Source: an uncultured Gammaproteobacteria bacterium (GTDB lineage Bacteria; Patescibacteriota; Microgenomatia; UBA10105; UBA927). Taken from it: DNA of 64,000 nt. The notes below the pieces were generated by a model that saw nothing but the letters and a program-made list of their open reading frames with translations, was not told the origin of the DNA and searched no databases. The translations under genes were made by a program, and so were the position numbers. The DNA is taken from NCBI GenBank assembly GCA_964430295.1, contig CAYSEV010000001.1, positions 5,699-69,698 on the forward strand, written 5' to 3'. Of this stretch, positions 574-63,478 are shown in pieces; position 1 is the first letter of the stretch; every line of letters begins with the position of its first letter.

Positions 574-1659
574 ATGAAAAAAAACATACAGGTATTCATT
601 GATGATATCTACACGTGGAGAGACGGCTGGTACCACTATGCACAGCGCCATACACGAAAATTTGCCATGCGTTTTGAAACGCAAAAAGATGTAGTCGTTG
701 ATATACTCATGGCTCGCAGAGGCACGTATCAGCGGCCTTTCTTGCACTTGTCTCTTAGCCTCCTTTTGGTTGCCGGCGTCATTGGTGCACCAGTTATTGC
801 AAACGCATACCCGGGTGGATTGCCGAGCCAACTTGATGACTATACACCATCATCTGCCGTAGCGGTTTCACTTGATTTAAATGAATACGGTGTCCAAACA
901 CAAGTATCTGAAAAACCTCGGGATAAAGTTGAAACATATACAGTAAAAGATGGAGATACACTTGCCAAAGTTGCCGATACGTATGGCGTAAGTATTGATA
1001 CAATAAAGTGGGCAAGTGATCTAAAAAGAGATAGTTTGAGTATAGGTCAGGAACTTAAAATCCCTCCGGTTACAGGTGTTGTACACAAAGTCAGAGAAGG
1101 GGAAACTATACAAAGTATTGCGAAAAAATATCGCACAGATGCGCAGAAAATTGTTAACTTTCCGTTTAATGATTTCACCGATCTGGATACCTTTGCATTG
1201 AATGTGGGGCAGCTCGTTGTTGTTCCTGATGGTATACAGCCAGAGGCAGCACCAATCGCACCGTTCATACCACCTCCTCCGCAAATCGCCTCACTTGGGT
1301 CGGGAAAGCTGTTGTGGCCAACTTCCGGTGTAATTACCCAATACCCAATTTGGTATCATATGGCATACGATATTGCCAATCCTTCTATGCCAGGGGTTAC
1401 TGCTGCAGATAATGGTGTGGTCATTATTCCACCATTCATGCGCTATGGATACGGAAACCATGTCATTATTGATCATGGAGGTGGATTTTCGACATTGTAC
1501 GGGCATTTATCTGAAATCTATGTCAAAACAGGAGATCGTGTGGCACGTGGACAGGTTATTGGCCGAATGGGTACAACAGGTCGTTCAACCGGTACGCATT
1601 TGCATTTTGAAACACGGGTAAACGGCACTCCTGTAAATCCTGCAGGGTATTTTAAATAA
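574..1659 (+). CDS. LysM-LysM-M23 family metallo-endopeptidase (peptidoglycan hydrolase), with an N-terminal signal anchor.
   Basis: There is a hydrophobic anchor, PFLHLSLSLLLVAGVIGAPVIANA. Two LysM-like repeats follow (YTVKDGDTLAKVADTYGVSIDTIKW...GQELKIP and HKVREGETIQSIAKKYRTDAQKI...GQLVVVP). The C-terminus is an M23/LytM domain with the HxxxD motif (HMAYDI), a GYGNHVIIDHGGGFSTLYGHL core and the HxH motif (THLHFE). Confidence 0.85.
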   Translation: MKKNIQVFIDDIYTWRDGWYHYAQRHTRKFAMRFETQKDVVVDILMARRGTYQRPFLHLSLSLLLVAGVIGAPVIANAYPGGLPSQLDDYTPSSAVAVSLDLNEYGVQTQVSEKPRDKVETYTVKDGDTLAKVADTYGVSIDTIKWASDLKRDSLSIGQELKIPPVTGVVHKVREGETIQSIAKKYRTDAQKIVNFPFNDFTDLDTFALNVGQLVVVPDGIQPEAAPIAPFIPPPPQIASLGSGKLLWPTSGVITQYPIWYHMAYDIANPSMPGVTAADNGVVIIPPFMRYGYGNHVIIDHGGGFSTLYGHLSEIYVKTGDRVARGQVIGRMGTTGRSTGTHLHFETRVNGTPVNPAGYFK

Positions 1660-35500: not shown

Positions 35501-38500
35501 TTACCACGATTGCTTGAATGGTTGATATTGCCACGATTCTTAGGTCAGGTTGGATATAGGGTGTCTCCTGAACAGTACACAATCTCATCGGATGTCAGAC
35601 GGGCAGGAAATAATACGGAAGTATGGTATGTGAAGAAAAATATCAAGAAACCGAAGAAGATAACTATGAATGTGTTTGGTAAAGAGGTCCTAATCCATGA
35701 TCCAAACTATGGTTTATATAATATCCAAAAATGGAGAATTCCTATACCATTTATAGATCATAGTTTCCATATACTGGGATCAGGGTATCAATCAAAGTTC
35801 AAGATATTCTTGGGCAAGAGTCAGGAATACATAAACCTCTATGTACGCGTTTGGGAAATGCAAAATAAATTGCGTCAAAAAGTACCGACAGAACGAACCA
35901 AGCTGTTAGGTGGTGTTGCATCAAACGGATACCTTGATGAGGTACAGCAAACCCTTGCACTCCTTGCTACGGAAACTGATCCAGGCCGGATTCGTACACT
36001 GGAGCAATACTCAAGAAAGCTTTTGACAAATATAGACGAGCTCATCATTGAACTCACAAAGCTTCGTGATGATACACAGTCGTTCATCATCCGCGAGCCA
36101 AGGCAGATGAAAGGCCTTGATACGGCAGGAATCTCTGCTACACTCCTGGCTCTTATGGACAATAAGGCACTATTAGTCAGCCAGTTATCTGTTGCGCAAC
36201 TGCGCATACAACATGATGTCATTGATGGGGCGATAAAAGGTGAGGTTAGAAACGCGGCTCCAAGTGTCAGAATCGCATTGGAACGAGCCATTCTCTTGCC
36301 TCAAAAACTGTTAAACAAATTATCACAAGTGTTTGTTAAAGCAGGTCCGCAGGGAGCGGCGTTGGAACCAACAAATTGTACGTCCTGTTACACAGCTCTG
36401 CGAGATATGAATGGGTATGTAACTCGTGCTATCGCAGATAAGTCAGGAAAGAGCAATGTATTATTTGACGATGCAAATGTCGTACTTCAGACAGAAATAG
36501 ATAAACTTACTCGTGAAAGCGGAAATGCGTTAGTCTTAGCTGATGCGGAACTTGCAAAGTCTATGCTTTCTGCCGTTGTCAGTGAGGATCCTAAGGCCGT
36601 ACGCGAATATCTGAATAATATCCATACCCAGAAATTAGCATTATCAAAAATTGCAGATAAAAAGAGATTGTCTAAAGAACAAAAAGCACGATTGGATGAT
36701 ATTATACGCCTACTTAATACACTTGGTGATCGTATAGAAGATCTCGTAGATGTCATAGATACACCGACCATAGGTGTGAAAGCAGATGCAGTGGAAAAAC
36801 ATCAGCAGATATTGGATATCGATGATGACTTTGTCGTAAAAGAGGTAAATCAGATTGTTACCCCGCGCAAGATAACAGTGGCAAGTTTTGTGCGTATGAT
36901 GTCATTCTTCCTTCCATTCCTGGTTGAACCGGCATATGACGATACATATGTTGCAGATGTGCTTTCACAGGTTCATGTTCCGGAATTACAAAAACTTCAC
37001 CCCGAAAGACAGTACCTTAGAGTCCGTACTAGGGATATAAAATACCTGGCAAACGGCACGGAAAACTTTGTCTATAAAGGAACATTCCGTTACCTGGAAA
37101 ATGGTGAGCTTAAGACAGAAGTGAAGATTGTAAAGATAAACCGTAAAGAAGATAGCAGGGAACTGTATGGGTGTTACCTTGCCTATGTTGCGTGTCTTCG
37201 CTCGTATGTATACATGTACTCATCGATAGGAAAGGTTATAGAAGAAAAGTATCCGGACCTGAAGTATTTTGTACCACATCACGATCTGTACCATATAGGC
37301 AACCTGCAAAACTCACTCATCGTCACAGAATTTGTTGAATATAAGAGCATGAGTAAGTATAAGTTTGAAAGTGAAGAAGAACGGGAGCGCTTAAGTAAAG
37401 AAATAAAAGCAGCAACACAAGGACTCATGGAGGATCTGGATAAACGATATGCATTCCAGTTTGATTTCGTGGGAACAGATAATTTAGTCATAGGCAAGGG
37501 AGCTGATGGACTATCTCATGTCATGTTGCTAGACCCTGGTATGTATGATTCACGGCGTGTTGTGTTAAACAAAATCCTAGGGCCGATATCTCGAAGTGCG
37601 ATGCGTGTAATCGATCGATTTAGAGCAAAACAATACATCAGAATCTTTGAACCTAGTGTTTGGAAGACAATGGGATTCAGATTGCAGGCCCTTCGGGTTG
37701 GCGGTTTTTCAAAGGAAGATGAACCGATTGCCCGTAAAGTATACGATGCAGGCTATCGTGGCGCCTCAATGGCTGTATTAACTGATCGAATTCAGAAGAT
37801 ACGTACGTATCTTCCATTGACTGAGAGTATCAGAACTGTGTTGGAAGGGTATAAAACGATCGGATCATACTTATTTGATCGGTATTATTTGCGAATAGAC
37901 AGTACCAATAAAGCAAAAGTATTTTTGCATGTGGCTGACTGGGTAAAAAATAAACTTCCTGATGCACAAATTTATCAGCTTTGGAATGCTGTTGCGGCTC
38001 TTCCTGATGATATGCGCACGTCGGCAGCCAACTATGTAACCATAGCAGTTCGAAGACATGTTCCAACCAGTCAGATATTGGGAACATTAAGGAATCTAAC
38101 CTCTCAGGGAACAGCACAGGCAGGTTGGAAGGGGATAGCCACAGACACGAGCCTTACAACAGTAAATGATCAGGCATATACACAATATCTTTATGCGGCA
38201 GCACTCCCACAACTTCGAACCTGGATTCAGGGAAATACTGATACAGCAGATATTCAATCTGAAATAACACAAATAGTAGGGAATATGGCAAATCTGAATC
38301 CTTCTACTCCAACCCGCGGATCTCCGTTTACGCAGGTACATATTGATGCTGCTATCCGAGCCTTGGTAGCTGATTTCTCCGAAATTCAACGAGATGCGCT
38401 CCAAAATCAGGTTACTCCTCAAACAACACAACCGTCACTGCAGCAGGATCTTATACGAATTATTCAGGAAGTTGTTAAAGATCCTAAAGAATTTATTCGT

Positions 38501-41500
38501 ACATTCATTCAATCAATTAAAGGATCAGATTTTTCCTTCGTAAGACAACTGGAATCCGTCGTAAAGCGTCTGGTTAGTAAGATAACATGTGGTCAGGCAG
38601 GAAGGTTGATAGGTATTATCTATGCAACAGATGCATCCGCTGCCGCTTGTGAGCCATCTTTAGTTTCACAGACAGCTTCATTTGCCCCCTGGACAGTAAT
38701 TTCTCATGTCGTGAAGGTTGGGGCGGCGCTTATTGCAAAACCATTAACATCTCAAGGATTACGTCAGGCTTATAGGGCTATAATGCCTGTTTCTCCCGCA
38801 TTGTCTAAACCTGTGTATACAATTATCAATAAGGTAGAAGATGAAAAATATTATGTGTATGAGATTAAGCTACAGAATTCTTCACATACATTTAATGTTA
38901 GGATTTCTAAATTCCTTTCATTTGACCGAAATACAACACAGTCTACAGGGAATATATTTTTAGACTGGCATACGGCATATATTGAATCAGTTGTTGAGGG
39001 ATATGATCGTGCTCTGACTATAAATCCAAATATATTTGATACGCAGTATCCGCTGGATACAGTAGATTTTGACATACGCGCGATAAATGTGGATGTGTTA
39101 TACGAAAGCAATTTCTCCAATAGAATTTTTGATGGTATAGATGTGCCTGAAAATACAATAGTGCTTCCTGGTAGTGTCGTCCAGAAATTTGGGCAGGATC
39201 CGACTGTTGTGACGCGTACAATCACAGGAAAGTTGCTGTTAAATGCAGCATATTTCGGGTACTCTCACGATGAAGCTCTATGGCTGCGAATAATTTCTAA
39301 AGATCCATCCGCATTACAGGCATACCATGCACAGACGGATGCACAAGGTGTTACGACACATCTTGATGAATACCACAAAATTAAAGATGCACTTATACGT
39401 GCATTGCCATCACAACTAGTTGTTGAGGCAATGAAAATGAATGCAGATGAACTTATTCAGTTTTTCGCACAATTAAATGATGAAGAGTGGATGAATGTAT
39501 TGAAAACATACTTCGAACAAAGGGGGTTATCTCATGATGATCAGCAAAAGGCTGTTCTTTCATCCTTAGCTGCTAATGAAAAGTTCGTATATTATGCATC
39601 GTTCATTAAAGATGTGTTTAAGCATCAGTTCTCAGGAGATTTTATCGCGAGAGCAAGGTCCGAGGCGAATAGTCAACCTGCATTTCAGAGACGAATGCTG
39701 CGAATATTTAATTCGATACAGTTTGAAATGGATCAGACATATATCATTTCATTCTGGAAATATCCAAGGCGCATGTTTACTTTGTTGAGGGATATTTTCT
39801 ATTTTGAGCGCAATTTCATACCCGGTGACGAATTAGATACCCATGATGTTTCATCGTATGAACGCCTTATGAATTTACATTGGATCTCATTGGCACTGGA
39901 AACAAAGTCATTCACACCCGAATTGAGAAATTTAACTATTCAAATGTTCTTCAGTGTCATGCAGAAGGTTCTTGAGGGCAAACGAAATGCTGACAATGGT
40001 CCTATATCCGAGTATACGGATGAAACACACAGATATGTTGTGGAAACTAATATTGTAGCATTTGAAAAAATGTATGAATCTCTTTACCCAAGGGGCGTAT
40101 CCCGAAAAGAGTTAGATGCTTTGGCTAATGCTGTACGAAACATCGTTTTGAAAAAAGGAATATATAGTATTTTTGGAAGTTCCAGTGCATATGAAAGTAG
40201 AGCAGAAGAATGGTATTTACGATGGATCGACACTATTCCGGGTTTGCGGGGCAAATATAAGATAACAAAGTCAGAGGAAGTACTATTATCACGTGCGGTG
40301 CTTTTGATGCAGCATATTCCTGATTTCACAACATTGTCCGCACATGATCGCGAAGTTATTGGAGCGTCGCTGCTGAGGTATTTAGGAATTCCGGATGCGA
40401 GGGCAAAATATTTGTCTTCATTGTTTGTTCTAACGAGAAAAGACACATCAGTGGAGACCGTATTAAATGACTATGCTAACGCTCAGTATGATGGGCTTAT
40501 TAAGAAATATTCAGCAAGATACACTCCGCAGCAGATGCAAAAGAATATTGCATTAGCGAAGCAGGCTGCGGAAGCAAAAATAAAAAATAGGAATGCTAAA
40601 GTAGCGGATCTTTTGAATCTGCCGGACACGGATGAAAATAGAATTCAGGTATTTTTAGATGGCTATGATGTAAATCCTGAAAATGTGCTCTTTTATGACT
40701 CGGAAGTTTATGTTGATACATCGTATAAAAAACAATGGGAAGCTCTCTACCTTACAAGACTATTCTATATTCAGGATGAAGCCTACATGTCTGAAAAGTC
40801 AGGTATTCCAGCTGCTGATCTTCGGCGAGCCTCAGATGAAACACTTCGAATTTTCCGTTCAGAATATGAAGAAGTGTTTAAACGTGCGTATCCGAATGCA
40901 GAGATAATTCCTTCTGTTTTTGAGTCTGCGAACGCACTGTTTAAAACGATAAATATGATTGGTAATCCACTTGTTGTGATTCCTCCAACGAGTGTCATGG
41001 GTCCATCTACATTCGAGGAAATTTCAGTAAACGCGGGATCGGCAAATATTATCGGAAGATCTCATATGATAAATGCCGCTGTTTATTTTAGCTATGGAAA
41101 TTCTGTTTATCCGCTAATAGATTCCTCAGTGCATGAATTATGGCATTTAGCCCGCAGAGTAAACGATCGCGGTACTATGAATAGCATGTATCGGTATCTG
41201 CCGCAGTCTATGTGGCACCAGCTTGAGGAAGGAACTGTAACAAATCTGGAGAGGAAGGCAATGACTATTGCGTATCCGGGAGTTCCAATCATATCAATGG
41301 CAGATTATGCTATGGCTGAACAGTCATACCTGAGCATGCTTCAATCACTCCGACAGGTTCTTCCGACAATGAGTGATACAGAGTTTGATCGTCTAAAAGC
41401 AAAAATGGAGATTGGGGATTACTACGAAGTTGTTACGATGCTTGGCGGCTGGGATGCATTTAATACATTTTTGGAGGCAAATAAGATTGGTAATTTGCCA

Positions 41501-44500
41501 TATTTCGAATACACATTCGGCAGAAATAAATTGACTGATGCAACCGGTATGCAAACAGTTCAGATGGCGCAACGAACATCTTCAAATATTTCAGCATCTA
41601 ACGATACAAATCATTCTGACATGGCAGGAGTTCCAACTCTCACACAAACCGCTGAGTTTGTCGAAGTAAAACAAGCACTTCAGGGAGCACAGCGACAACT
41701 GGAAGGATATCAGGAAAACCTGATGGAAATGGAACGCTCGCTCAACTTTGTAAAGATTGGACGATTTATTGCCTCTGTAATCGGTATTGGAGGGGTACTA
41801 GTTCTTTTAACAGCTTCTGTAATACTAGCCACAACATATCTCATTCCGGGGATAATAATGGCAGCTGTCACTGCTGTCCCGGTGGCAATTTCATTACCGT
41901 TTATTATAGGAGCGTTTAACACATCTATTGTATATCCGCTGGAAGAAAATATAACCGATGTAAAGGTAGAAGTAATCGATCAGCAACAAGTCATCAAAAC
42001 ATTACAGGAAAATCCTCTATTCACAGAGCCTGCACTTCAGGATCTCAAAAAAGAAATGATACAACAGGAAACGGCTCATATGGAAGCGACACATGATGTA
42101 CTTATCGAAACACAAGACACACTTGACTTCTGGAAGCGGGTAAGAACTGTAATTATGGCTATTTTAGCTACAGGAGCGATCTTCGTTGGGGTCATATTAT
42201 TCTTCTTAACGGGGATGCCTGCCGCACTTGCTGCACTATTCATGACGCTGCCTGTCGTAACAATAATGGGTGGAATATTTATGGGTATGCAAATTATACC
42301 GATTGCACCGTTGGCAAATGATGTACGTGATTTACAGAAAACCTATGAATTACAGAAGAATTACATTCAAAAATTACAGGGAAAAACGTCTGAGACTGCC
42401 CCCAAATTAAAAGTCGCCAATGACCCATGTACAGGTGAAGGAGCGTTCCGACTCTTTGGTCGGGTGTTTGCGGCTGGGCCATGTCCGATTATCCCACTAG
42501 GCGCTACGGTTCCTGTTGTGACAACTGGTGGTAAAACAACAGATATAGCTCTCCCAGCTGGTAAATACGTGATTGCACAGACAGAGGAAGAAGCAGCGCA
42601 ATCAACAGCAGAGAAAGCAGAACCAATTATAGGAACCATACACGGCATGCAAACTGGGAATGAATTCATACGTATATTCCCGACTGTTCCATCAACCACA
42701 TATCCTGAACCCTTCATCATCAATTATGCTGGATATGTCAAAGCGCATCCGGTAGAAGAAAATATTCAAGCTACAAAAGAACAAGGAACGCAGATGTTGA
42801 AGTCTGGCCTATCTTATCCATCTTGGAGATTAGATAGCAAATCAGAGAAACGAGTAAAACTGGCAACAGACACACTTCCAAAGGGACAATACTGGTGGTG
42901 GAGGAAAATTGATCCAGTTACATTACAACCAATTGGCGACCGAATACTCATCAAAAACAATCAAGGAGAGATGCCAACCATAAAGCCTGGAGAGACGATA
43001 GCGGTAGGCACATTCAACGCAGACAAGTCTGGTAATCCAACCACATTTATGGCTGCTACCTATGTGTTTGATGGTGATGTGATCCTAGGGATAAAAACAG
43101 GATCCGACGCAATAGGGCCATCATCTACCACAACAAATAATTCACAATCAACACGACAATCTTCAAAACCAAGCACATTTCCAAAAATCTATGCATCGAT
43201 TATTGCATTTATATTTGATCCATTCGGCCGATTGGCCGAAATTCTATCAACGAATGGAAATATAGTGACAGCAGAAGAGTTACGACAATCCGTTTCTTTA
43301 CGGAAGTCAAATACTGATGCCGATGGTAATTTTACGCTTGACTATTTGATTTCGCTTGTTGGAGAAAGCCGTTCAGTACTGAGAAAACTGGTTCAATATA
43401 TGATGAATTTAGATTTTGCATATGAAGATATACGGGATATTGTAGAGGAAATTGTTTCCGGCCAATTTGGAAGTAGAACCGATAAACTTGTAAATTCAAG
43501 ACGCGTAAATATAGCAATCGTCAGCGCTATTATGTACGACAATTCCATATACGGTTCAAAAGTTCCCATGCCGTATACCATGAAAGAAGCGCTAAAAGCA
43601 GCCAATCTATATCTAGAACAGGGAGATGATTCTATTGTAACCAGACTGATTTCAGTAGGTATATTAGAAAACAGAGCACAGCAGATAAAACAAATGCTAG
43701 ATTCCGTTAATAGTGCAGGCTGGGATCAGCAAATATCGAGAATTGGTATAGTTCCAGTTCTCCTTACGCAAGCAGAATTAGTCGCGTATGACATCACAGA
43801 GCGTGCAGCAGGGCAGTTATATGAGGAAGCTCGGCGATGTTCCGGTCTATCGTTACTCCCGACTGTGTATGCTGATGCTGGTACAAATACTTCCTGTTCT
43901 GCTATGGGGAGAATTGTCTCTACAATGCCTCAAATAATCCCAATCATTGAAAGTAGCTGGGAAACATTACCTGGGAGATTTAGAAGAATCTGGTTGAACT
44001 TGTGGAATTTTCCAACTAGTTCTCTCACCATCAATACATCACCGGGAAACGATGATACGGTCTCGATAAGTCAAGAACAAATCTATGCGGCAACGCTGGA
44101 TTATATGGGTCAATTATTCGCACAGAACACCAATGGTAATACTGAAGAAATACTCTCACAAGTAACTACGTATGCAAGGAATCAAGGTTTGAATCAAATC
44201 CAGATTGATAAACTATCGTTAGCAATGGAAGTGATGGGGAAGAATCGTATCAGATCAGAAGAATTGCTTGCTCAATATAAAGATCCAAAAGATTTGTTTT
44301 ATGCAATGTTTGGATTACGACCATGGTTTCCTATTACAGCAGAGAGGGTTGGGGTAAATATTGCCTTTAGATTATATGATATAGATAATGCACGCTTGGT
44401 GGAAAAATTTATCCCACCGATAAAAGATAAAAATCCTCTAAAGAATTCAATTAATTATATATATTGGTTAATCAATAGGCCATTTAGATTCGCATATGGA

Positions 44501-57500: not shown

Positions 57501-60500
57501 AAAGGGACACAAAGCAAACTCCTTTTGTTATAACGTCACTAACTTGGACTTCGGATAAGACCGAGTATAAAAAAACTGACTCAGATTTCAAGATTAAAAC
57601 AATAGGAAAACCAAATGATGCAAAGAAATCAGACATTGTATTGCCTGAAATCGGTCCTATAGGAGAGGGTCATGCAAGCACTCGATACTCTACATCTATG
57701 CGAACGCTTGAAATAAAACCGGAAGAAAAAGCATTTGCTATATGGATAAAGAAAAAAGGTGAACGGCTAGCTATCAAATATACCGCGCCAAATGCATACA
57801 GATCTTTAGCAACAGGTGATGAAGTGACGTTTTCATACGCATCCGCAGAGAGTGCATCAGAAGGTGTTACCTATGTTGTTGCTAAACTCGCTGACGGCAA
57901 TTTTGCATTTGTTTTGAGCTCTAATCACGAAGTGCTATACGGATTACCATTTATAGCACCGGAAAATGAACCTGTCTTTGTTCAGCAAAAAGCGAATCGT
58001 GTGCAGGGGAATACCGGCTGTGGAACGGCATATGATTCGTTTCTCACAGTCTTTGCCGAGGAACCTGCAGAGCCTGTCGTTTGTTATCCTGTCAGAGCAG
58101 GTTCGCTACTTCAGTTAACTAACGGTAAAAATATCCGCATCCCAAAATGGGGGATATATGTGCAAAATGGCTTGCATATCTTTAGTCCTAAGACAGTCAT
58201 GCAAGTGCCTAAAAACGGTTCGATAACAATTATAGGATTATGGGTATGGAGAACGATACAGGGAACAGAGATAACAAATACAACTCGTTCCATAACCGTA
58301 CTTCCCACATCATCTGGTGACATATCTTTACGTGCTTCTGCTTCACCTGGTGATTTTGTGAATAGTACTGCACATGAAGAACATACACGTCGCTATTACA
58401 AACAGGCAGTTATGGAACATGCTGCCCCTGATATTTCATTGGCTGCAGCGAAATCAATATTTTCAAGACTTTATAGAACGAATGCTCCAAATCGTGATGA
58501 AGCAAACAGATTATATATACAGGCATGGATTATTATGCATACACTTGTTGCAAATGGTCATCTTCGTGCAGAGCAAATTCCTACACTATATGCAGTTCGG
58601 GTAAAGGGAGAACTGCGCTATGTATTTTCCTTCGCGCAAACATTTATTACGCATAACCATACAATAACAAATGCGGATGGATTAACAGTACATACAGGAT
58701 CAGCGCCTGCAGAAACGATTTTGACATATATGCAACAAGCGGATCCGACGCTTTCTCAGTCAGATATATCTGAAGTAGTGTGGAATGCCTCTTCATACCC
58801 ATTTATGCCTATTGGTACTGAAATTGAGTCAGAATTATTAGAAAAAGATATTACTGTTGATACTCATGCTATTGCTCAGCTTGTTACTCCGGAAAAAATT
58901 ACTCTACTGCGGCAATTTCCGAATGGTTCAGGGACCGGTTTTGGTGTCAGTCAGATAGTCGCATCCGATCAGTTTGCTCTTTTAACCGCTGGTGTAAATG
59001 CAGAAGAGGTCGAGAGAATGTCCGGTATGATTCGTCAAATCATTACTGAAACTCTTGATTTGATGAGTGGTGATCCACCAATTGTAAAAATCAGAAATAA
59101 GATAGATGCGATTCGTTCAGAAAATTTTGATGAATTAATAAGAAATAACAGTGCATTACAACAGTCAGTATTGGAAAAGTCCAACTCACTCTTTGGTAAA
59201 GGCGTCCAGTATGTGAAAATTTGGCTTAATGCCTTCGGTCTCTATGTGGATTATGATACTGCCTTCAAGGCAATTCGTGAAAAGGTAAATACAGATGTAG
59301 TAGCCTTTGCAAGCTACATGAGTTTATATGAATCGGACAGATCCACATTCTCAGAACTGGATCAATTTGACGCTACTCGATATTTCCTTGATATGTTACA
59401 GGAAAGATACAACGTACAGCTGGCGCACTACAAAGGGGGGCTGTTTTTCAGACCTCTTGCATCTGGACATAAAAAAGATCCCGGAGGTCCACTAGATTAC
59501 GTTATCGATGCTGCTTTTGCGCAAAGTGCAAACCAGAATATTACATTCCTTAATCCGATTATCAAACAGTGGAAAGAACGCCATGTGTACGTTCTACAGC
59601 CATGGTATCTGAATTACCTACAGCCTGACATGAAGTATACGTCGTATACAGACCTTGGTATCACAGAAGAAGATATTCCGCTGGTAAACCTCTCAAGCCG
59701 CCCACAGGAAGATCAGCATATGTTGGCTAATCTCACAGGATTATTTCAGAAATATCTGAGAGCACCACTGGTAACGGATACGTTTACAGATCATGTCTCA
59801 CAGAGAAGACCATGGCTTTCAGCATTGAGATCAAGGATTACTCAGGAAAGAACCCAAAGTGATGCCACTGATTTTATCCGATGGATATCTACAAATAAGC
59901 TTTCCGGTGGGGAGATATCTCAAATGACAAGTCATGTCCTTACACTTCAGGCATTGGGAATATTTTCATTTTCTTCCGAACTTCTTGAGCAAGCAAACAC
60001 GTTACAATCATATTTCCTTAACAATAGTGAACGGTATGATTCACTTACAAATGAGGAAAAACTTACTGTTGTGCAGGATGCAATTTCATTTGCTAAGAAT
60101 GGTCTTAAAGAATTAGCATCCGCATCAGTTCTTGAATCTACTAATTTACCAAAAGAAGAACCTTCTGAAGTGCACTCAAAAGAATTAAAACAGGAAGAAA
60201 AAAAAGTATCAACCGAGAATTCCGGATGTGATATAACCATTTCCTTATTTCATCAAGTGTTTGCTCAGGAGCCTGCAGTACTTGTTAATTGTTATCCCAT
60301 TGGAGCAGGTTCGCTACTTCAGTTAACTAATGGGGACACCATACGTATACCAACGTGGGGAATATACGTTCAGAACCGCAAATTACATTTTTTTGGTCCT
60401 GATACGATACTGGAGGTTTCTCAGAATGGCAATATCACAATACTTGGACCGTGGTTGTTTCGCACAATACACGGAGGAGACATTTCACTTGAGGGAAAAC

Positions 60501-63478
60501 ACACTCAAACTCAGGATATTCGTGTAGTGGAAGAAGATCCTGTTACTGTTTCGCCAACAGTTGTCAGCGATGCCATGAAGGAGCGCATAAAATTATTGTT
60601 AGGAAATAAAGTATATGAAGCTGTGGCCGGGGTTATTTCTCAAAATAGAGAAGGAGCAAAAAAAGAACAGGATTTGCTTGACGCATTGGCTCAGTATATG
60701 GTTGACGCCAATTACAATTCACAGCTTGAAAAAATATCGCTCGATAAGTTTGTTGCTGATGTTCGAGGAATACTTGGTGAACACGCAGATGAATTTATAC
60801 AACAACTTGAAACTGTACGAGATCCGATTCACGAGGTATTTTCACCATCATCTCTTTTGCCATTTATCCATGAAGGATGGAGTGTTGATGCCAGGTTTGA
60901 TATTTCAAATTCTTCAAATATAAATCAGGCGTATACAAGCAACGTATTGGGTGATTATGCGTTCCGGTTTGGAATACGTGCCGTGTTGGACGTGATTGAT
61001 AGATACCCAGAATTACGGGGAAATGCAGTTATTGTACATTCATCAGGAGATGAACATCTTATTTTAACCAGAAATGGCTATAATTTACCGTTATCATTTA
61101 AGTCTGAAGTCGAACGCATATCAAAAGAGAAAAAAATCATTCGGAAAGGTTTTGATGGTTTACTGCATTATGAAGACTTAGGAGTTCACTTTTCTGATGT
61201 AAAATTTCCTATAGAAAAAACGATACCATCAGATGGAAATGTTGATATAACGCCAAAATATCTCAATGATACAAAAACGTCAAAAAGACTATTTAATTAC
61301 CATCCTGAAATGGCATTTATAGTGGATCGTATAAGCCAAATTCAGGTTAAATCTTCTTCTCAGAAAATAGATATAGCGGCAGGACAACGAGTAATGAGTT
61401 ATCTGCAATGGCTCTTTGAGCGAATTTATGTCGATGACATTATGGAACAGGGGTTTAATCAGTATGAAGCTGATAGAATATCCAAACCACATTATGACAG
61501 AGAACACATCTTTATTTATAAAGATTTTCGTGATTTTGTTGGAGGTATAAAACAGCGTGGTACAAAATTCAAACTCCTAAAGTTGGATTTCATTGGGAAT
61601 GCAAAACGTATAAATGATGAAATCAGTTATGAAGAGGGAAATAGGTTTATTCAGCAACAATTGGCTAAGACACTTGATATGTTGCATGCCCAAGGGATAC
61701 AAAACGTACGTATTTTTAGACGAGCAAGTGAATTTTATATTGCCCTTGAAGATGGTGAATATGCAAAAGAATTTGTAGATATATCGGATGAAAGTGTTCG
61801 AAAAGCATTGAATGGCACATTTACTACACTGGATGGAAGAAGCTTTTACGTACCGGTGTCCTATGCATTTACAGATTTGAAGCTGGTAAAAGATACAATC
61901 GCCGATGAAATATTACCGGACGGAACCCGTATAAATAGAAATATTAAAAATATGGGTGACGCATATGATCGTCTACGTGAACTGAGCAAGGCAAATGCAT
62001 ATAGATATTTGCAGAAAGTACTTCAGACAGAATCGATGACCGAACCAATGTGGGATTTCGTTATGTACTATTTTAACCCGAATGATAAACGGGGAATTAT
62101 GCGAATATCGGATCTGGCTATATCACCTGATGATCTTATACATCTGCAAACTTTTTATGCAGATCAGACGAGATATCAGAAACAGATACGCAGTATACTT
62201 ACCACGGTTATAAGAAACTACATACCAAAACAGACCCGGATAATTTCTGAAAAACACAGTACGATATCGCTTAAAAAATGTCTTGTAGATGCTGGCGTTC
62301 AACATGTCGTATATGCGCAGGATGCAGGTGGGGGAGGTGGTTGGACATGCCCGCCGTTTTTACAGGCACCTTGGAAAACGATTAAGACATATACAGAGCA
62401 ATTTAACATGCCAGATTTTTCTATACAAAAAATACTTGGAGCAGGAATGGGACTGCTAAAGAAAGCAGGCAAATGGACCATTGGACTCTTTCCATTTAGT
62501 TGTAGAACAATTGTATACATGATGCTACATGATATTGATCAGGGAGTCATTCATACTGAATATGCAAAAGACGCGTTCCCGACAATCTTTAAAGGTGAGG
62601 CTGCATGTACAGAATTAATGAAAAATTTAATAAGCGATAGTCAATTAATTATCATAGGAGATACGAGTGTGACAAGGGTTGTCGATGGAGAGGTTATACG
62701 ATTTTATCTCAATAATTCCACTACAGCTAAAAATTTAGGATTAGAACAAGACAGCGAAAAAAAACCCGCTTTTATAATTGAGCCAATAGCAAATGGAATA
62801 ATAGTTCCTTTGACAGATCTAGCGACAGTACAAGCAGCGTATGCAAGTTTAGGAAAGACATTGCAAGATCCGGTATCTGTCGTCTATTTAGGAACAGTCG
62901 GAGATGGTTCAACATATAAATATAACGGTACTTTTGTATTAAAAACCGGATTCGATCAGAACAACATATGGGTAATGTCTAATGGTCAACAAATAACTGC
63001 AGCCACTAGTATAAATCCAAAAGATTTATATCCAACTGCAGTGCAGATTCAAACATTATATGACTATCGGGACATATATGATCTATCTTATGCAACGAGG
63101 AATAATGAACTAAGGTTATTGTCACAACTATCGCAACAATTCAACGATTATATTTATAATAATTCAAATTCTTTTGCATTCCAAGGATACATAAATATGG
63201 TCGGCTTTGATAAAACTGGAAAGCCTGTACATATTTTTGTTGATAGGTCCGTATTTTATAATCTCGAATTACAACAAGAGTTTAGAGAGAATTTAGAAAA
63301 AGAAGGAATTCAACATCAGGTAGCGATTTCAGATGTTGTAGAGAGTACTATGATATCTACAAACACTGGAAACTCGATAGATGAGTCAACACAAAAACCG
63401 GTGGCAGACCATACGTGGAATGGTATCATTAACAATGAAAAATTAAACGAGGATACACCATTTGTTATTATTCGGTAA
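45542..63478 (+). CDS. Giant multi-domain membrane protein 2, 5,978 aa from the ATG at 45542 (the ORF is open from TTG 45494). It contains N-terminal TM helices, TM pairs, repeated Cys-bracketed modules, two HExxH domains, a class-3 lipase domain and long internal repeats.
   Basis: The frame is uninterrupted for about 18 kb. The first ATG, at 45542, is preceded by GAGG (45530-45533) at 8-nt spacing, whereas the TTG at 45494 has no RBS. The N-terminus MVGMLQYLFAFVSHIFTLF...MSGMVVGFILSFSIIYGIS is hydrophobic. The protein's architecture is paralogous to the C-terminal 1,200 aa of gene 1. Confidence 0.88.
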   Translation: MVGMLQYLFAFVSHIFTLFTKRFSHGLQSKKHHSIVFGGMSGMVVGFILSFSIIYGISQDCRSAIHQLVSFKLIPVVHAAQNCPVLPPAEVAAAKANAVKKESQLRGFAKVLNQPYAITFFQYLNQLLGGSSKTANTADKTASTPLENTSSLNNISEDKVLNGQAAKEHILALARKYKGVLSTQLLSHIETAIGVGMLPKEYMSFNDGEKIQFLAGGQSSALFTPAVLQKLADYALVDPRIAIGQFSEMAAATYAEQLPQESDIRLAIVKLKEMGVNQYSLKLQLFSDGQPLWIVNTSGQSFVIRAKKTTIPIEEVRSRIASLGDTIPFTYAEQLAPGKVLLFIRNLSYDNDGEYVKLPEQASFVEKVLERFRDLGFEPDFVHESYMNLQNFMYSKFYGKMFYVDQDVFDELLKSDGIKPNDKVTRAVNSQLEELSKRSSVKTPDTAPSSVTPNPSSALNTAKQQAVVSRLKLALDGANNALVNSQRNFWFAAVGTIVFAIGMIAIMATVPWLIVPAALALLVTVPSSMFLIPNFYMSMDTNRQTLQSAQAQYISAQNDLLILERSQASATPLNISSEQAKARAQETLDAATKANNVAFNNLVFGSAATIAIVFLAVAVMMISPGLFVLPSAIALVGVVLLSSFGLFRLSSNFNTSLSTLRGTQQVVKTGVSQVISKDNPCKPTGFHLFGQVYAEGPCIILSVGGDPVATAKEGEKGEPIPSTPAQILPGSTYVVGTFDELKNVTEGKDSVGTQIKEIPSDQYVKVFPPVGATGPNNQPIQPFVVDVPTIYATQQANQPIQQQNSGAKVNMSDSSPNTTTTIRNTINRILDIRSWFPSPYSIIQNNIVLRMFAPFISPVTTSISPWSIFGRGRSEPIQEIANIVSSEEAQQYVISKYNAMISALESGAKLSSTRTTMMRAEAIAGLIASPAENIDAANRRYAMAFILMNTLVDRELAHPRQVERFFMVRTSKGIRLIYTDGKNFVTNTNPKSSTERVAVKYLTGGIKEALAYMQEYDSTVQLSDFEEVNWDASLFPFMDRTNIAPDSAKIRSKRGVEIAEDIVKKLENPPIPTAIEFAKDKLMELQPEKASSVDRALKDIAVDMNAVDGDQAVKQNAIYRKFFGDPIWQNYGLAKGYFELHVAAPKKYPLELKANSDELTDESLKAIHEWYESQQTPDEAHQERLNRGGALNMVQKIKTLLAKLGIKLPLAETDPIHNSVVVFSDDQFKLLYPDKEDANILAFYDERLGLYVIRSSANLTSNQKTELEEIKFMIAAHEAGHDMVRYIGPFMTHEWNEGMATMFMIALLVKQNGISWTEARAKVVAFVSPEYVKHLEMVEQSQFGSVLIERAFEKGFTSETVADVFLTFYKKLPNKEKMLAGATYADSTNAFTTAVTSTAQQFGIITPDQKVELWPKLYTFFVDNTVAKDLDPDTEVKFDPTTRSIGKKRVTLPILSSIPSSELFGTIAGLDRKGYALPKADFDSLDIEAPGYVLAVQNDSEAKEYLERLYRTYPGAATKPIFILVATSRRTAVSGNVLLTSNGSDLLRALDTIFQSSGPLHELRTQAKKTEVTEIRPGVYQFGSALFFVDKTTGAMAMDYAPDTSLASVQIDGRSLAQTAYVFNNTQIGISGVAYTVTTQGNAVILIKENGESVQLPIAAKSLREFPKNPGQSPLPAPVLPATQKQAAQPVVSVKQPEAVLKNPVSTSDEANVLTMKTKDGVIKVRRAELVDGKLIGHGAIIYDDPAKQIEYGATEMPIRIMFNTTDENLSGLTQETLMRELERRYVYANDVLIAWHGYLETGEQFEPAGNTVLEPWDKNGKRQMMIALSHSGTEGTYVENPDYTAKNLIAQVEAAVELVSEQINYTDEDVHITLMGHSLGGAIAFKLAEKHGLDTTGVWAKVKYIMLTPYVGDPNQLTLLNEYSLIPGVKSLGILRIINSWYLPSALRRGLLAFAHFVGFDEALFSAMMSLDLKKMDDASVRLSKDIALKNLSDAPVAIRMTQSLLNIGMVENNAPLQDLTRKSRMVVFYPGVDDTLDSAITRSFNLSRGFFQVGYDRTHNPSTASYKSHIFEVVQGLFEGFDIQKTRPGVFAQIDRRSHNFYKVVWDGLKMKFSKLSSTDPCTPTISVQIFGRVYAAGENCVIFYSNSEVETRTENGQSTGIKRNIPQSGTFRVVTQEQLTDEVLNPQTTDFKFNGKISFTNSLDGQTQNRYLVVFPSDNTPAFIIRIPDIHTQSGTQSGKVVSIDTHTNVRLDGKTWKLSYSAADTSAKLNGISLGQGDISLEKGSRNTLYVAPNYVLLIDIDPNSNELTYQKLPSDDPRVVFESLEIESLPESISPQVRERRDAAYKGDLARSILNNVDEAQDARMIEFRDGSRAFPKTPPHPAYSGETSSWKYHSEYAQKELWNSYYTSLVAALASGKSKEDIKGEVNKLLAQFRNTANLELFKEKQAFSDGLVRQLEAQPAEEFLPLTLGSAFREILNRYPLLKTIITPDQLAALKRVLIEEVKNAYMLFAASGSNAILEARGYFFPNPVKSVTTNENGSLVIDTLKKDEANTIIEIRNKDGTYKKNPVILAAYIKAIEEGAQYISFTLASKTDEGFNEILPDLAEYVYEHNRNPKYKSSPVVLMVDAVQLFGRAPESEVFQWLLVEGISGVIHTGSKAAAGPAHAGITHISTYGKTVTGTVSTVDQSIANMTTPAIVRAIGNLKAIRGMWDLGPAFQLYSPIAVALQRVYDRFFTRIGLVPIGDEEGFQRKNTFGSIRTYRLMMGWDGKTIVDAKKLLATWSPVWLMGGVLEETPLAGPLLRNGIPIGVMKWLKETVITPEDLKDPHMSAEKAANAVDDALRQVEGRMQDDLIRLAEENGVYLRIADEIAPVDQTEAAAQAALIALVNTAAKRTGVQDEGESCDPTQVGIHILPRVYAAGCKTGMTRKLYNQLITGAKLLGTRMNRIVWGRLFGKKNVFGQFKQNQVQNITSRSRLFVYSNEQMNISKYFSTEQLSDFDSIINKILDNYNKTGSYDIRHSSQQKDVININDDLTAEEKYGRMFDWTKSFFILKALQKYTKLYPFYLIGHSIIVANAALFSGTDFGTFLYQKALPWMYATVSSDIKHTAILMMISYINNLSIAGEIADMSVSELSEFNREVVNTFIKAFDRNFQLAYSNASTGLDSDELRSDAEKKILQAITINSYFPILPLPRFLTGMINQNGFMGHGTGVAFLSKALIVENRKQAISTSVHEMNHMQVDTQINTPELNYYSHLPYGLSMTLDESITRLNQLESIDAYNESYYDIGVIKLLTVLKPFLVEKVGQNTADQVFAQIKLGDFSTIVSIFGGWDAFRAYLQDPTMFGSYYKIDEIQYRDNSSDVWKKVNFENDREIFLSQSAELLLPNGIVVPMQKSIISGVKKKTNKQIVDSKSRILYTYDNADIAEEIELKDDKYILLKEYVSIGINITDFSSRLIVGARKSKEILAMQSEYADLLHSLFVEPDDVVSSIHANVNPIAKTIYMRSAHIDATCILGQRLIPQVFAESIGTVQTSYCEFAGREGLLYSPNAVLRAMIGNANGQVTRLTAIAKSLAVNADNPELSPTERRMWHFLGQIIGGDLFTYMEKLQQTTAKKIRISDAQMEDLYATYIALYPHVREAIARKNEQGTVTATYDPEVVYAVLKNTPVEIRELAVRAVSFMMQTAQHDDAGNIMSMPMDIDSVEGRRHLHDALAYYNDQFFAWLSLASPDGYQQYQERLSGRAPNALRRDVSDVSSLELIFPTIQTSASSAFPFSTQVVGSTPSKETMKSLYTVVNGDTVTASTETMSVILRDPQGRTDQSERMSIMAEEIGKYFQKHELMPEHLMDVWPQDALRFFLREQLQLMGIKKETVELTFVFRIKDVNGQWIGVALTNTDEPLVINKEGSKAVRASDPAELGTVALAQVVDKFKSEWNVYFYPIPKTGNQYVMTRKNIKSIQNELLSTMALDVPVSAYGEKLTEILQRDTKQTPFVITSLTWTSDKTEYKKTDSDFKIKTIGKPNDAKKSDIVLPEIGPIGEGHASTRYSTSMRTLEIKPEEKAFAIWIKKKGERLAIKYTAPNAYRSLATGDEVTFSYASAESASEGVTYVVAKLADGNFAFVLSSNHEVLYGLPFIAPENEPVFVQQKANRVQGNTGCGTAYDSFLTVFAEEPAEPVVCYPVRAGSLLQLTNGKNIRIPKWGIYVQNGLHIFSPKTVMQVPKNGSITIIGLWVWRTIQGTEITNTTRSITVLPTSSGDISLRASASPGDFVNSTAHEEHTRRYYKQAVMEHAAPDISLAAAKSIFSRLYRTNAPNRDEANRLYIQAWIIMHTLVANGHLRAEQIPTLYAVRVKGELRYVFSFAQTFITHNHTITNADGLTVHTGSAPAETILTYMQQADPTLSQSDISEVVWNASSYPFMPIGTEIESELLEKDITVDTHAIAQLVTPEKITLLRQFPNGSGTGFGVSQIVASDQFALLTAGVNAEEVERMSGMIRQIITETLDLMSGDPPIVKIRNKIDAIRSENFDELIRNNSALQQSVLEKSNSLFGKGVQYVKIWLNAFGLYVDYDTAFKAIREKVNTDVVAFASYMSLYESDRSTFSELDQFDATRYFLDMLQERYNVQLAHYKGGLFFRPLASGHKKDPGGPLDYVIDAAFAQSANQNITFLNPIIKQWKERHVYVLQPWYLNYLQPDMKYTSYTDLGITEEDIPLVNLSSRPQEDQHMLANLTGLFQKYLRAPLVTDTFTDHVSQRRPWLSALRSRITQERTQSDATDFIRWISTNKLSGGEISQMTSHVLTLQALGIFSFSSELLEQANTLQSYFLNNSERYDSLTNEEKLTVVQDAISFAKNGLKELASASVLESTNLPKEEPSEVHSKELKQEEKKVSTENSGCDITISLFHQVFAQEPAVLVNCYPIGAGSLLQLTNGDTIRIPTWGIYVQNRKLHFFGPDTILEVSQNGNITILGPWLFRTIHGGDISLEGKHTQTQDIRVVEEDPVTVSPTVVSDAMKERIKLLLGNKVYEAVAGVISQNREGAKKEQDLLDALAQYMVDANYNSQLEKISLDKFVADVRGILGEHADEFIQQLETVRDPIHEVFSPSSLLPFIHEGWSVDARFDISNSSNINQAYTSNVLGDYAFRFGIRAVLDVIDRYPELRGNAVIVHSSGDEHLILTRNGYNLPLSFKSEVERISKEKKIIRKGFDGLLHYEDLGVHFSDVKFPIEKTIPSDGNVDITPKYLNDTKTSKRLFNYHPEMAFIVDRISQIQVKSSSQKIDIAAGQRVMSYLQWLFERIYVDDIMEQGFNQYEADRISKPHYDREHIFIYKDFRDFVGGIKQRGTKFKLLKLDFIGNAKRINDEISYEEGNRFIQQQLAKTLDMLHAQGIQNVRIFRRASEFYIALEDGEYAKEFVDISDESVRKALNGTFTTLDGRSFYVPVSYAFTDLKLVKDTIADEILPDGTRINRNIKNMGDAYDRLRELSKANAYRYLQKVLQTESMTEPMWDFVMYYFNPNDKRGIMRISDLAISPDDLIHLQTFYADQTRYQKQIRSILTTVIRNYIPKQTRIISEKHSTISLKKCLVDAGVQHVVYAQDAGGGGGWTCPPFLQAPWKTIKTYTEQFNMPDFSIQKILGAGMGLLKKAGKWTIGLFPFSCRTIVYMMLHDIDQGVIHTEYAKDAFPTIFKGEAACTELMKNLISDSQLIIIGDTSVTRVVDGEVIRFYLNNSTTAKNLGLEQDSEKKPAFIIEPIANGIIVPLTDLATVQAAYASLGKTLQDPVSVVYLGTVGDGSTYKYNGTFVLKTGFDQNNIWVMSNGQQITAATSINPKDLYPTAVQIQTLYDYRDIYDLSYATRNNELRLLSQLSQQFNDYIYNNSNSFAFQGYINMVGFDKTGKPVHIFVDRSVFYNLELQQEFRENLEKEGIQHQVAISDVVESTMISTNTGNSIDESTQKPVADHTWNGIINNEKLNEDTPFVIIR
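49300..49700 (+). other. HExxH domain type B in gene 2 (HEAGH at 49370-49384).
   Basis: The context is ...EEIKFMIAAHEAGHDMVRYIGPFMTHEWNEGMATMFMIALL..., with a downstream Glu-containing segment that could supply the third zinc ligand. Confidence 0.35.
50890..51330 (+). other. Class-3 (fungal-type) lipase / alpha-beta hydrolase domain with a GHSLGG nucleophile elbow.
   Basis: The sequence ...RQMMIALSHSGTEGTYVENPDY...DEDVHITLMGHSLGGAIAFKLAEKHG...KYIMLTPYVGDPNQ carries GHSLGG at 51170-51187. Together with the downstream P-x-V-G-D/N motif, this reproduces the Lipase_3 signature (hh-GHSLGGA-hA, then G-x-P-R-V-G-N). Confidence 0.6.
55160..55620 (+). other. HExxH domain type A in gene 2 (TSVHEMNH...GGWDAF), the paralogue of 41050..41520.
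   Basis: HEMNH lies at 55256-55270. Its context is ...KQAISTSVHEMNHMQVDTQINTPELNYY...; about 85 aa downstream is ...DFSTIVSIFGGWDAFRAYLQDP. Confidence 0.45.
58011..58335 (+). repeat. Internal repeat R1 of gene 2, about 105 aa and beginning with the Cys-bracketed module. It is repeated at 60218..60500.
   Basis: R1 NTGCGTAYDSFLTVFAEEPAEPVVCYPVRAGSLLQLTNGKNIRIPKWGIYVQNGLHIFSPKTVMQVPKNGSITIIGLWVWRTIQGTEIT aligns with R2 NSGCDITISLFHQVFAQEPAVLVNCYPIGAGSLLQLTNGDTIRIPTWGIYVQNRKLHFFGPDTILEVSQNGNITILGPWLFRTIHGGDIS. The two copies share an identical 26-nt DNA core, gcaggttcgctacttcagttaactaa. Confidence 0.8.
60218..60500 (+). repeat. Internal repeat R2 of gene 2.
   Basis: See R1. Confidence 0.8.

Follow-up and report, generated by a model that had tools for sequence, protein, structure and literature searches.

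A recurring Cys-bracketed loop in two giant proteins of a CPR bacterium, possibly a disulfide-tethered nicking site

Candidate Phyla Radiation (CPR) bacteria, which account for a large part of the diversity of bacteria, live in attachment to other cells and make very large surface proteins. Giant proteins have been described from the epibiont Vampirococcus (PMC8080830) and from Omnitrophota (bioRxiv 10.1101/2023.11.21.568195), and a Cys-bracketed repeated loop is described in neither report: the former does not contain the word 'cysteine', and the preprint contains 'disulfide' only in its reference list and 'cysteine' nowhere. Elsewhere, the Cys186-Cys201 loop of diphtheria toxin is nicked and the fragments remain held by the disulfide (PMC2172777), and the large surface adhesins of Mycoplasma hyopneumoniae are cut at an S/T-X-F↓X-D/E motif (PMC3322551; arrows mark cleavage). 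Here we describe a Cys-bracketed loop that recurs in two giant open reading frames (ORFs), g1 and g2, of a 64,000-nucleotide stretch of DNA from a CPR bacterium (contig CAYSEV010000001.1; 'the window' below means this whole stretch). The best-supported description is of a disulfide-bracketed inter-domain loop that is under selection at the peptide level and punctuates giant CPR surface proteins in the parts that lie outside the cytoplasm and bear enzymes.

The recurring unit is about 20 amino acids (aa) long and has the pattern C-x(4-14)-hh-[GP]-x-[VI]-[YF]-A-x(2-16)-C. Ten strict and two loose copies are present in the window (Table 1); the copies in g1 and g2 number at least eleven, and four further copies occur in related metagenomic proteins. 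An initial annotation of the window had quoted six peptides, all of which are present in the frames of g1 and g2 at, or within a few bases of, the positions it gave. Its count of six was too low: the loops at residues 12003 and 13753 of g1 and 77, 3533 and 5596 of g2 and the loose pair at g2 5670 had been missed, which brings the number to about twice that reported. All g1 loops lie within the last 2,240 aa of the protein. The spacing in g2 had been put at 2.2-4.4 kb; with all loops counted they are spread rather evenly, at intervals of 604-787 aa (1.8-2.4 kb) except for one of double length, 1444 aa.

A scan with C-x(4-14)-[VI][YF]A-x(2-16)-C found three matches in g1 and seven in g2, and the corresponding means for shuffled sequences were 0.03 and 0.008. 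Because these counts far exceed the shuffle means, we conclude that the motif is not a product of chance. Seven of the 13 [VI][YF]A tripeptides of g2 fall within the 3.3% of its residues that lie between paired Cys (binomial P = 6e-8). Cys is rare in the giant proteins (0.3-0.5%), and nearly all Cys of the loop-bearing part stand in close pairs. In g2 all 18 Cys form nine neighbour pairs within the limit set at 36 aa, with members 17-35 residues apart; when the Cys were placed at random, 200,000 trials had on average 1.7 such pairs and at most eight. This extreme pairing fits disulfides, which probably form in the loops.

The core is conserved as a peptide. All four synonymous Val codons and all four Ala codons are used in it, and the mean nucleotide identity is 51%; the full degeneracy of the core codons shows that what is selected is the peptide rather than a repeat in the DNA. 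Tandem Repeats Finder found no tandem repeats. A DNA-level repeat or recombination site was considered and is ruled out by the codon degeneracy together with this null result.

The loop is also found outside the window. An exhaustive HMMER search of 1.84 billion representative proteins, with a profile built from the C-terminal 1,166 aa of g1 and two g2 copies of a longer module (discussed below), returned seven proteins, one of which was g2 itself. One of them, P0122, is an orthologous fragment (42% identical to g1 13579-13804) that keeps both Cys and the core, CRSGIFSFLQVYAAGGQAGSC. Another, P0123, is a 4,085-aa protein from another metagenome that has only the C-terminal HExxH domain in common with g1; it carries two loops, CRPVGSLFVTPVFAAGEGGGGC and CIVSGPFVPRVYAAEGAGGGGTC, and the second resembles g2 loop 5596 and the residues after it. 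The next ORF on the P0122 contig (L005 ORF2) has an HExxH motif and, 160 aa later, the loop CLADYAGHKVYAADEQSSNNSGC. Scanned in all six frames, related loci totalling about 115 kb had the loop pattern at these four places only. Because it recurs in P0122, P0123 and L005 ORF2, we regard the loop as a portable, conserved element of this protein family.

Other searches for relatives returned nothing. The extended module was found in no other protein among the 1.84 billion representatives. A word-seeded search of 5.8 billion proteins with the module profile and g2 aa 600-2400 gave no match, a weak negative in that the same index missed g2 itself, although the collection contains g2 as its own cluster representative. 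An exact 38-mer from the window was absent from genome and metagenome contig collections, and pattern-seeded scans of genome, metagenome and viral contigs with the module alignment yielded no relatives.

To describe the loop we aligned 14 copies, three of them from other organisms, on the invariant Ala and numbered the positions as protease subsites with this Ala at P1. P1 is Ala, P2 is Tyr, Phe or His and P3 is Val or Ile in all 14. P4 is mostly Arg or Gln, P5 is Pro or Gly in nine, and P6 and P7 are hydrophobic. P1' is Ala, Glu, Gln, Thr or Asp and never Pro. The first Cys is at P13 in half of the loops (range P12-P19); the second lies between P3' and P11', after a stretch of variable length rich in Gly, Ala, Ser, Glu and Pro, and the loop including both Cys is 18-24 aa long. 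Judged from this alignment, the loop combines a fixed, hydrophobic, recognition-like strand with a flexible part whose length varies, and two Cys hold it.

The fixed strand resembles sites of known peptidases. A -3,-1 pattern with a helix breaker at -5 characterizes the sites of signal peptidase I (von Heijne), and the loop alignment has this form, with small residues at -3 and -1, a breaker near -5 and no Pro at +1. Signal peptidase I and LexA belong to the same clan of Ser-Lys peptidases (clan SF). In S24 (LexA/UmuD) self-cleaving domains the strand that is cut has the form h-h-G-x-V-x-A↓G-x-P and precedes a beta-rich domain with the catalytic Ser-Lys dyad. The cleavage site of Escherichia coli LexA, which we take to be L-V-G-R-V-A-A↓G-E-P, can be written in register with the loop core L-F-G-R-V-F-A-A-G-P, a match that we treat as a resemblance only.

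The loops appear to lie among enzymatic domains on the outside of the cell. Transmembrane (TM) segments and positive-inside loops, assigned from hydrophobicity and charge, place every Cys-bracketed loop outside the membrane, and we infer that their location is extracytoplasmic. In g2 a basic segment is followed by a TM helix, loop 77 and then two TM hairpins. The FHA domain of g1 is bracketed by TM segments (aa 3879-3897 and 5020-5038), and therefore a phosphothreonine-binding segment is presumably cytoplasmic within a mostly extracytoplasmic giant protein. Between the loops are what we call cassettes, which contain four HExxH cores and one alpha/beta hydrolase. Three of the HExxH cores form one family, with invariant H, E and H and a Glu about 28 aa downstream; in an alignment of seven sequences (A7) the H, E, H and downstream E are invariant, as in gluzincins, which have HExxH and a Glu ligand some 18-30 residues further on. 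Members of this family match Peptidase_M48 (3e-6), Peptidase_M1 (1e-4), DUF5700 and minigluzincin weakly, and proabylysin, BepA and Ste24 are weak top matches in the Protein Data Bank (PDB), all below curated cut-offs. Across the roughly 20,000 residues of g1 and g2, Pfam and NCBIfam recognised almost nothing besides the FHA domain of g1 and the borderline alpha/beta-hydrolase of g2.

Some observations concern the cassettes of the relatives. Past the conserved loop, P0122 aa 262-382 resemble g1 aa 11726-11836 (25.6% over 121 aa, E = 3e-6; L005 35-1213), and in this place P0122 lacks the HExxH domain found after the same loop in g1. The comparison hints at a rearrangement of cassettes at the loop. 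The HExxHxxN domain of the g1 C-terminus defines a small family whose other large proteins also have GDSL lipase, C39-like peptidase or GGDEF domains, and the gene for this domain adjoins a SIMPL-domain gene in three loci (L004, L006 and L007).

We favour, with a probability of roughly 0.35, a mechanism in which the loops are protease nicking sites or linker sites between enzyme cassettes. The first half of each loop would be the recognition strand of an endopeptidase that accepts Ala at P1 and Val at P3, a specificity that belongs to the clan SF peptidases (signal peptidase I and the LexA-type site). Nicking at the loops would yield cassettes of roughly 600-800 aa, some with gluzincin-like cores or the lipase-like hydrolase, and the loop disulfide would tether the nicked pieces until it is reduced. 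AB toxins have protease-sensitive, disulfide-subtended activation loops that follow the same logic; here it would be repeated along a polyprotein. Precedents are the diphtheria toxin loop (PMC2172777) and the motif-directed processing of the M. hyopneumoniae adhesins (PMC3322551). The cleavage, its scissile bond and its protease are hypothetical. If the loops are indeed nicking sites, they would make up a multi-site, disulfide-tethered processing scheme, the first to be reported for a giant protein of bacteria.

Several points weigh against nicking. Neither an S24 nor an S26 peptidase is encoded in the window. For signal peptidase I to cut, a hydrophobic h-region normally has to lie directly upstream of the site, and only loop 77 of g2 lies within 25 residues of a TM helix: the nearest helix ends 22 residues before the Ala there and at least 40 before it elsewhere, and most loops have none nearby. 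All loops are internal, where a Sec signal peptide is N-terminal, with a positively charged n-region and a hydrophobic h-region of 7-15 residues that ends 3-7 residues before the site. Two clear signal peptides in a related locus (L001) end as the loop core does, in ...NLSLVYA↓ATG and ...ARGEVYA↓SETKD, which speaks for nicking, but the orthologue of the second in another relative ends in A-F-A; V-Y-A is therefore one ordinary signal-peptidase-type site, and the idea that it is a lineage-specific signal-peptide signature is ruled out. The sequence between loops is mostly without a detectable paralogue or homologue, and the cassette boundaries are not independently mappable. Lastly, the V-[YF]-A core and its flanking hydrophobic residues could equally be a buried beta-strand, and a low-confidence AlphaFold2 model puts strands on this core.

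A bolder version of the nicking mechanism is speculative, and we think it unlikely. The giant proteins might be 'poly-AB' pro-proteins in which a signal-peptidase-like (Ala-P1) protease cuts the loop array into disulfide-linked enzyme cassettes (metallopeptidases and a lipase), to be freed singly on reduction, for example in the host cytoplasm. If true, an episymbiont whose genome is tiny would thereby supply many effectors from one or two genes, by a route that has not been described before.

The main rival, which we consider a real possibility, is that nothing is cut and that the loops are structural staples: disulfide-clamped beta-hairpins or knuckles that stabilise linkers or cap the N-terminus of the next domain, with V-[YF]-A as a packed strand. 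Five loops (g1 13283, g2 697 and 2140 and those of the repeats R1 and R2) lead directly to beta-rich sequence, and the AlphaFold2 model, made from the three module sequences, is all-beta with short strands on F-R-L and R-V-F (predicted local distance difference test score 39, and so unreliable). Strict Cys pairing is typical for structural disulfides of exported proteins, and in P0122 the 30 residues past the second Cys are better conserved than the loop interior. However, unrelated classes of sequence follow the same core, beta-rich in some cases and apparently helical in others. The half after the Ala, 2 to 10 residues rich in Gly, Ala, Ser and Glu, is unusual for a fixed hairpin, and an invariant Ala with Val or Ile two residues before it fits protease subsites better than a generic strand. 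Were the loops staples and nothing else, they would still be a useful family marker, of modest general interest.

It is also conceivable, although doubtful, that the loops are constrained docking motifs that bind a partner protein, the cell wall or a host surface in the manner of RGD-type loops, or a chaperone or export factor that handles the chain segment by segment. The element is short, portable and selected as a peptide, with a conserved face and a variable remainder, and it is confined to this one family of CPR giants; the giant membrane proteins of such bacteria are thought to mediate host attachment (PMC8080830). The conserved residues, however, are mostly hydrophobic (L, F, V, Y and A), which is atypical of an exposed epitope, and no co-varying neighbour gene is present in the window.

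The initial annotation had proposed something larger: a disulfide-stapled beta-sandwich domain of about 100 aa, present six times and marking the starts of an iterated supermodule. For the six copies this is largely refuted, and we regard it as improbable. The copies at g2 2926, R1 and R2 share only the short core with the others, and the flanks of the other three (g1 13271, g2 686 and g2 2127) are weakly alike. In a two-protein database, blastp aligns these three over some 120 aa (E 1e-5 to 1e-9), and a profile built from them recovers full-length matches only at g1 13271-13413, g2 686-838 and g2 2127-2269. Loop 2926, R2 and g2 loop 77 match the profile over only 20-30 residues at the loop, non-significantly, and R1 is missing from the matches. 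When the loop is left out, the post-loop segments of the three copies are collinear and give Smith-Waterman shuffle P values of 0.0045, 0.07 and 0.056; their scores against leave-one-out hidden Markov models (HMMs) were equalled by 1-8 of 1000 shuffles, that is, they beat 99.2-99.9%. The post-loop segments of the other eight loops scored no better than shuffles.

R1 and R2 had been read as longer variants of the module. The loop is indeed common to them and the module, but the rest is a separate duplicated domain, and hhalign aligns the module with R1/R2 at E 0.049 over the loop region only. Of the motifs placed after the loop, V-F-P ... P-F-I-I is conserved in the three copies, and G-T-F is not a conserved column: in g1 IAVGTFNADKSG comes about 100 aa after IRIFPTVPSTTYPEPFIIN and not before it, and the GTF of g2 copies 2 and 3 falls in different alignment columns. 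Invariant residues of the three-copy alignment are P, C, F, G, V, A, G, V, I, P, F, P and F, and an invariant Lys, K129, lies downstream of the module end. On these alignments, there are three weak copies of a beta-rich segment of about 95 aa, R1 and R2 are a separate duplicated domain, and the common element is the loop of about 20 aa. As far as these searches show, the 95-aa segment is confined to the source genome, and two of its three copies come right after a double TM hairpin.

An iterated supermodule is not apparent either. Chunk-wise self-comparison of g1 and g2 found a few scattered local duplications and no iterated unit. R1 and R2 are duplicated within g2. A segment that we call block X occurs at g2 921-1080 and 4301-4460, after both module copy 2 and R1, and a double TM hairpin with the module is common to the end of g1 (12982-13304) and the start of g2 (438-717); these two arrangements speak for the model of the initial annotation. 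The remaining duplication is the HExxH domain at g1 12846-12965 and g2 3250-3360. No other protein among the 1.84 billion representatives carries the module.

The loop and the module match no described family. As the initial annotation had held, the motif is Cys-bracketed, occurs in both giant genes and is absent from Pfam, NCBIfam and PDB sequence searches. The loop regions of g1 and g2 have no match in Pfam-A or NCBIfam, the three module copies have none in Pfam even at E <= 10, and the module has none among PDB sequences. Judged from these searches, no curated family covers loop or module. Descent from a LexA/UmuD-type (S24) self-cleaving domain, with L-F-G-R-V-Y-A-A-G-P as a degenerate cleavage strand, is very improbable and is ruled out as a homology of the module: the ends of the module recall LexA (its V-K-V-F-P...P-F-V-V-D resembles what we take to be V-E-L-L-P-E-N...P-I-V-V-D in E. 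coli), but hhalign against the E. coli LexA C-terminal domain gives a probability of 0.2% over 12 columns (the one computed sign of likeness), no Peptidase_S24 match appears in Pfam at E <= 10 and no LexA-family match among PDB sequences, and the three copies have no Ser-Lys dyad, with no invariant Ser or Lys, and the segment in which G-x-S-M would have to lie is about 15 residues too short.

The window contains four protein genes, which encode a LysM/M23 peptidase, g1, g2 and, on the minus strand, the tail of a YfhO-type protein. The named relatives of the M23 protein are Candidatus Gottesmanbacteria and Patescibacteria, from which we take the source organism to be a Gottesmanbacteria-like CPR bacterium. 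A blastn search of phage records gave no match. A giant gene also lies 3' of the M23 gene in two relatives, where it encodes 14,806 aa and 11,585 aa (L001 12328-21083; L009 8726-17802). The N-terminus of the 14,806-aa orthologue is 29-42% identical to that of g1, and its M23 neighbour is 85% identical. Such low identity beside a well-conserved neighbour, together with the differing lengths, indicates that the giant gene is syntenic, variable in length and evolving very fast.

The start of g2 is ambiguous: translation from TTG 45494 gives 5,994 aa and from ATG 45542, the database gene call, 5,978 aa. g1 and g2 are in one reading frame and are separated by an AT-rich spacer of 186 nt with four stops. 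A single gene split by one stop was considered and is ruled out by the four stops and the spacer, despite the common frame. TATAAT-like strings occur in the strongly AT-rich region between the two genes (45308-45541).

Several other features of the window were noted. Two tRNA-Ala genes (anticodons CGC and GGC) lie at 1789-1860 and 1927-1999 on the minus strand, between the M23 gene and the start of g1. Directly downstream of g2, a 169-aa ORF on the minus strand (63479-63988) matches only the last ~60 of 835 YfhO profile positions; it is a fragment of a YfhO-type membrane protein or else a short remnant of the C-terminal part of one. Far from the loops, g1 has further paralogous blocks, aa 3726-4191 versus 6585-7043 (including TM segments) and 8411-8741 versus 9117-9415. 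A Cys-rich region of g1 (aa 150-1965, about 3030-8480) follows a Thr/Pro-rich low-complexity stalk and has 56 Cys in short C-x(2-19)-C pairs unlike the V-Y-A loops; it includes a repeat of about 100 aa (aa 341-429 and 504-604, 65% identical).

Table 1. Features of the window, with nucleotide positions; loops are named in the text by their first residue.
Feature	Position	Strand	Remarks
LysM/M23 peptidase gene	574..1659		
g1, giant ORF, 14,241 aa, GTG start	2582..45307	+	N-terminal signal anchor, several TM segments/hairpins, FHA domain
FHA domain, g1 aa 4316-4379	15527-15718		only confident Pfam domain in g1 (E = 1e-11)
Loop g1 aa 12003-12023, CGQAGRLIGIIYATDASAAAC	38588..38650	+	missed initially
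Gluzincin-like HExxH core, g1 aa 12790-12960	40949..41461	+	HELWH at 12851, with Glu ~28 aa downstream; g2 aa 3250-3360 is a paralogue
Two TM hairpins, g1 aa 13063-13117 and 13190-13241	41768..42304	+	directly precede module copy 1; g2 aa 438-717 is paralogous
Extended module copy 1, g1 aa 13271-13388	42392..42745	+	loop and ~95-aa beta-rich segment ending F-I-R-I-F-P...P-F-I-I-N
Loop g1 aa 13283-13301, CTGEGAFRLFGRVFAAGPC	42428..42484	+	
Loop g1 aa 13753-13772, CSGLSLLPTVYADAGTNTSC	43838..43897	+	missed initially; kept in orthologous fragment P0122 as CRSGIFSFLQVYAAGGQAGSC
C-terminal HExxHxxN domain, g1 aa 13828-14206	44063..45199	+	kept at/near C-termini of large CPR proteins P0123-P0127
g2, giant ORF, 5,994 aa, from TTG 45494	45494..63478	+	
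Loose loop g2 aa 77-99, CRSAIHQLVSFKLIPVVHAAQNC	45722..45790	+	V-H-A core; starts 4 aa past TM 51-73; missed initially
Two TM hairpins, g2 aa 513-548 and 626-666	47030..47491	+	directly precede module copy 2
Extended module copy 2, g2 aa 686-802	47549..47899	+	
Loop g2 aa 697-714, CKPTGFHLFGQVYAEGPC	47582..47635	+	
Gluzincin-like HExxH core, g2 aa 1230-1400	49181..49693	+	HEAGH at 1293, then W-N-E-G-M-A-T
Alpha/beta-hydrolase (lipase-like) domain, g2 aa ~1843-1970	51020..51403	+	
Extended module copy 3, g2 aa 2127-2245	51872..52228	+	
Loop g2 aa 2140-2159, CTPTISVQIFGRVYAAGENC	51911..51970	+	
Loop g2 aa 2926-2944, CDPTQVGIHILPRVYAAGC	54269..54325	+	loop only; then basic, probably helical segment
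Gluzincin-like HExxH core, g2 aa 3195-3365	55076..55588	+	HEMNH at 3255
Loop g2 aa 3533-3556, CILGQRLIPQVFAESIGTVQTSYC	56090..56161	+	missed initially
R1, g2 aa 4156-4261, beta-rich domain	57959..58276	+	51% identical to R2; tied to module through loop only
Loop g2 aa 4176-4197, CGTAYDSFLTVFAEEPAEPVVC	58019..58084	+	opens repeat R1
R2, g2 aa 4886-4998	60149..60487	+	
Loop g2 aa 4912-4933, CDITISLFHQVFAQEPAVLVNC	60227..60292	+	opens repeat R2
Loop g2 aa 5596-5619, CLVDAGVQHVVYAQDAGGGGGWTC	62279..62350	+	missed initially; resembles P0123 loop 3599 incl. downstream C-P-x-[YF]-L-x-A-P
Long loose Cys pair g2 aa 5670-5705	62501..62608	+	T-E-Y-A core; doubtful member; missed initially

The loop is a short, countable element that gives a handle on the organisation of CPR giants. 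It predicts exact peptide termini that can be searched for in metaproteomes, and it can serve as a search pattern for relatives that ordinary homology searches miss, g1 and g2 being almost without relatives among the 1.84 billion representatives.

At the level of single residues, the loops resemble the sites of clan SF peptidases (signal peptidase I and LexA/UmuD), with a small aliphatic P3, Ala at P1, a bulky P2, Gly or Pro at P5, hydrophobic P6 and P7 and a P1' other than Pro. They differ in that they are internal, Cys-bracketed and mostly without an upstream h-region or TM helix, and no S24 domain follows. In their arrangement they recall MARTX and polymorphic-toxin arrays, which also have several enzymatic cassettes in one giant chain and short conserved junctions that are processed in MARTX. 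The MARTX junctions are Leu sites without disulfides, and the giant proteins described here gave no sign of a CPD protease, of RTX or glycine-rich repeats, or of any known toxin or pre-toxin domain.

The activation loops of AB toxins likewise have about 14-24 residues between two Cys (18-24 here), lie between functional parts and are flanked by enzymatic domains. A loop of that type has two Cys 10-25 residues apart that form a disulfide, and its activity requires cleavage within the loop. The spacing of 18-24 aa, the extreme pairing statistics and the Cys pair kept in one orthologue would be compatible with such a loop if the putative disulfide forms. However, AB toxins have one loop per protein, with a basic, furin- or trypsin-type site, whereas the two proteins here have at least eleven, whose core, V-[YF]-A, is hydrophobic. 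The two kinds of loop have no sequence homology, and cleavage and disulfide are putative in ours. The M. hyopneumoniae adhesins, too, are large proteins on the surface of a bacterium that depends on a host and has a small genome; they are cut at a recurring short motif, and the fragments stay on the surface. Their motif is a different one, however, and lies in disordered regions without Cys, the proteins are about ten times smaller, and their cleavage is experimental where ours is proposed. Finally, g1 and g2 are like the giant proteins of CPR bacteria and other epibionts (Vampirococcus, PMC8080830; Omnitrophota, bioRxiv 10.1101/2023.11.21.568195) in length, membrane anchor, fast evolution, sparse Pfam coverage, hydrolytic domains and an assumed action at the surface of host or prey. 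The longest protein of Vampirococcus has 4,163 aa (PMC8080830), and g1, at 14,241 aa, is far above this.

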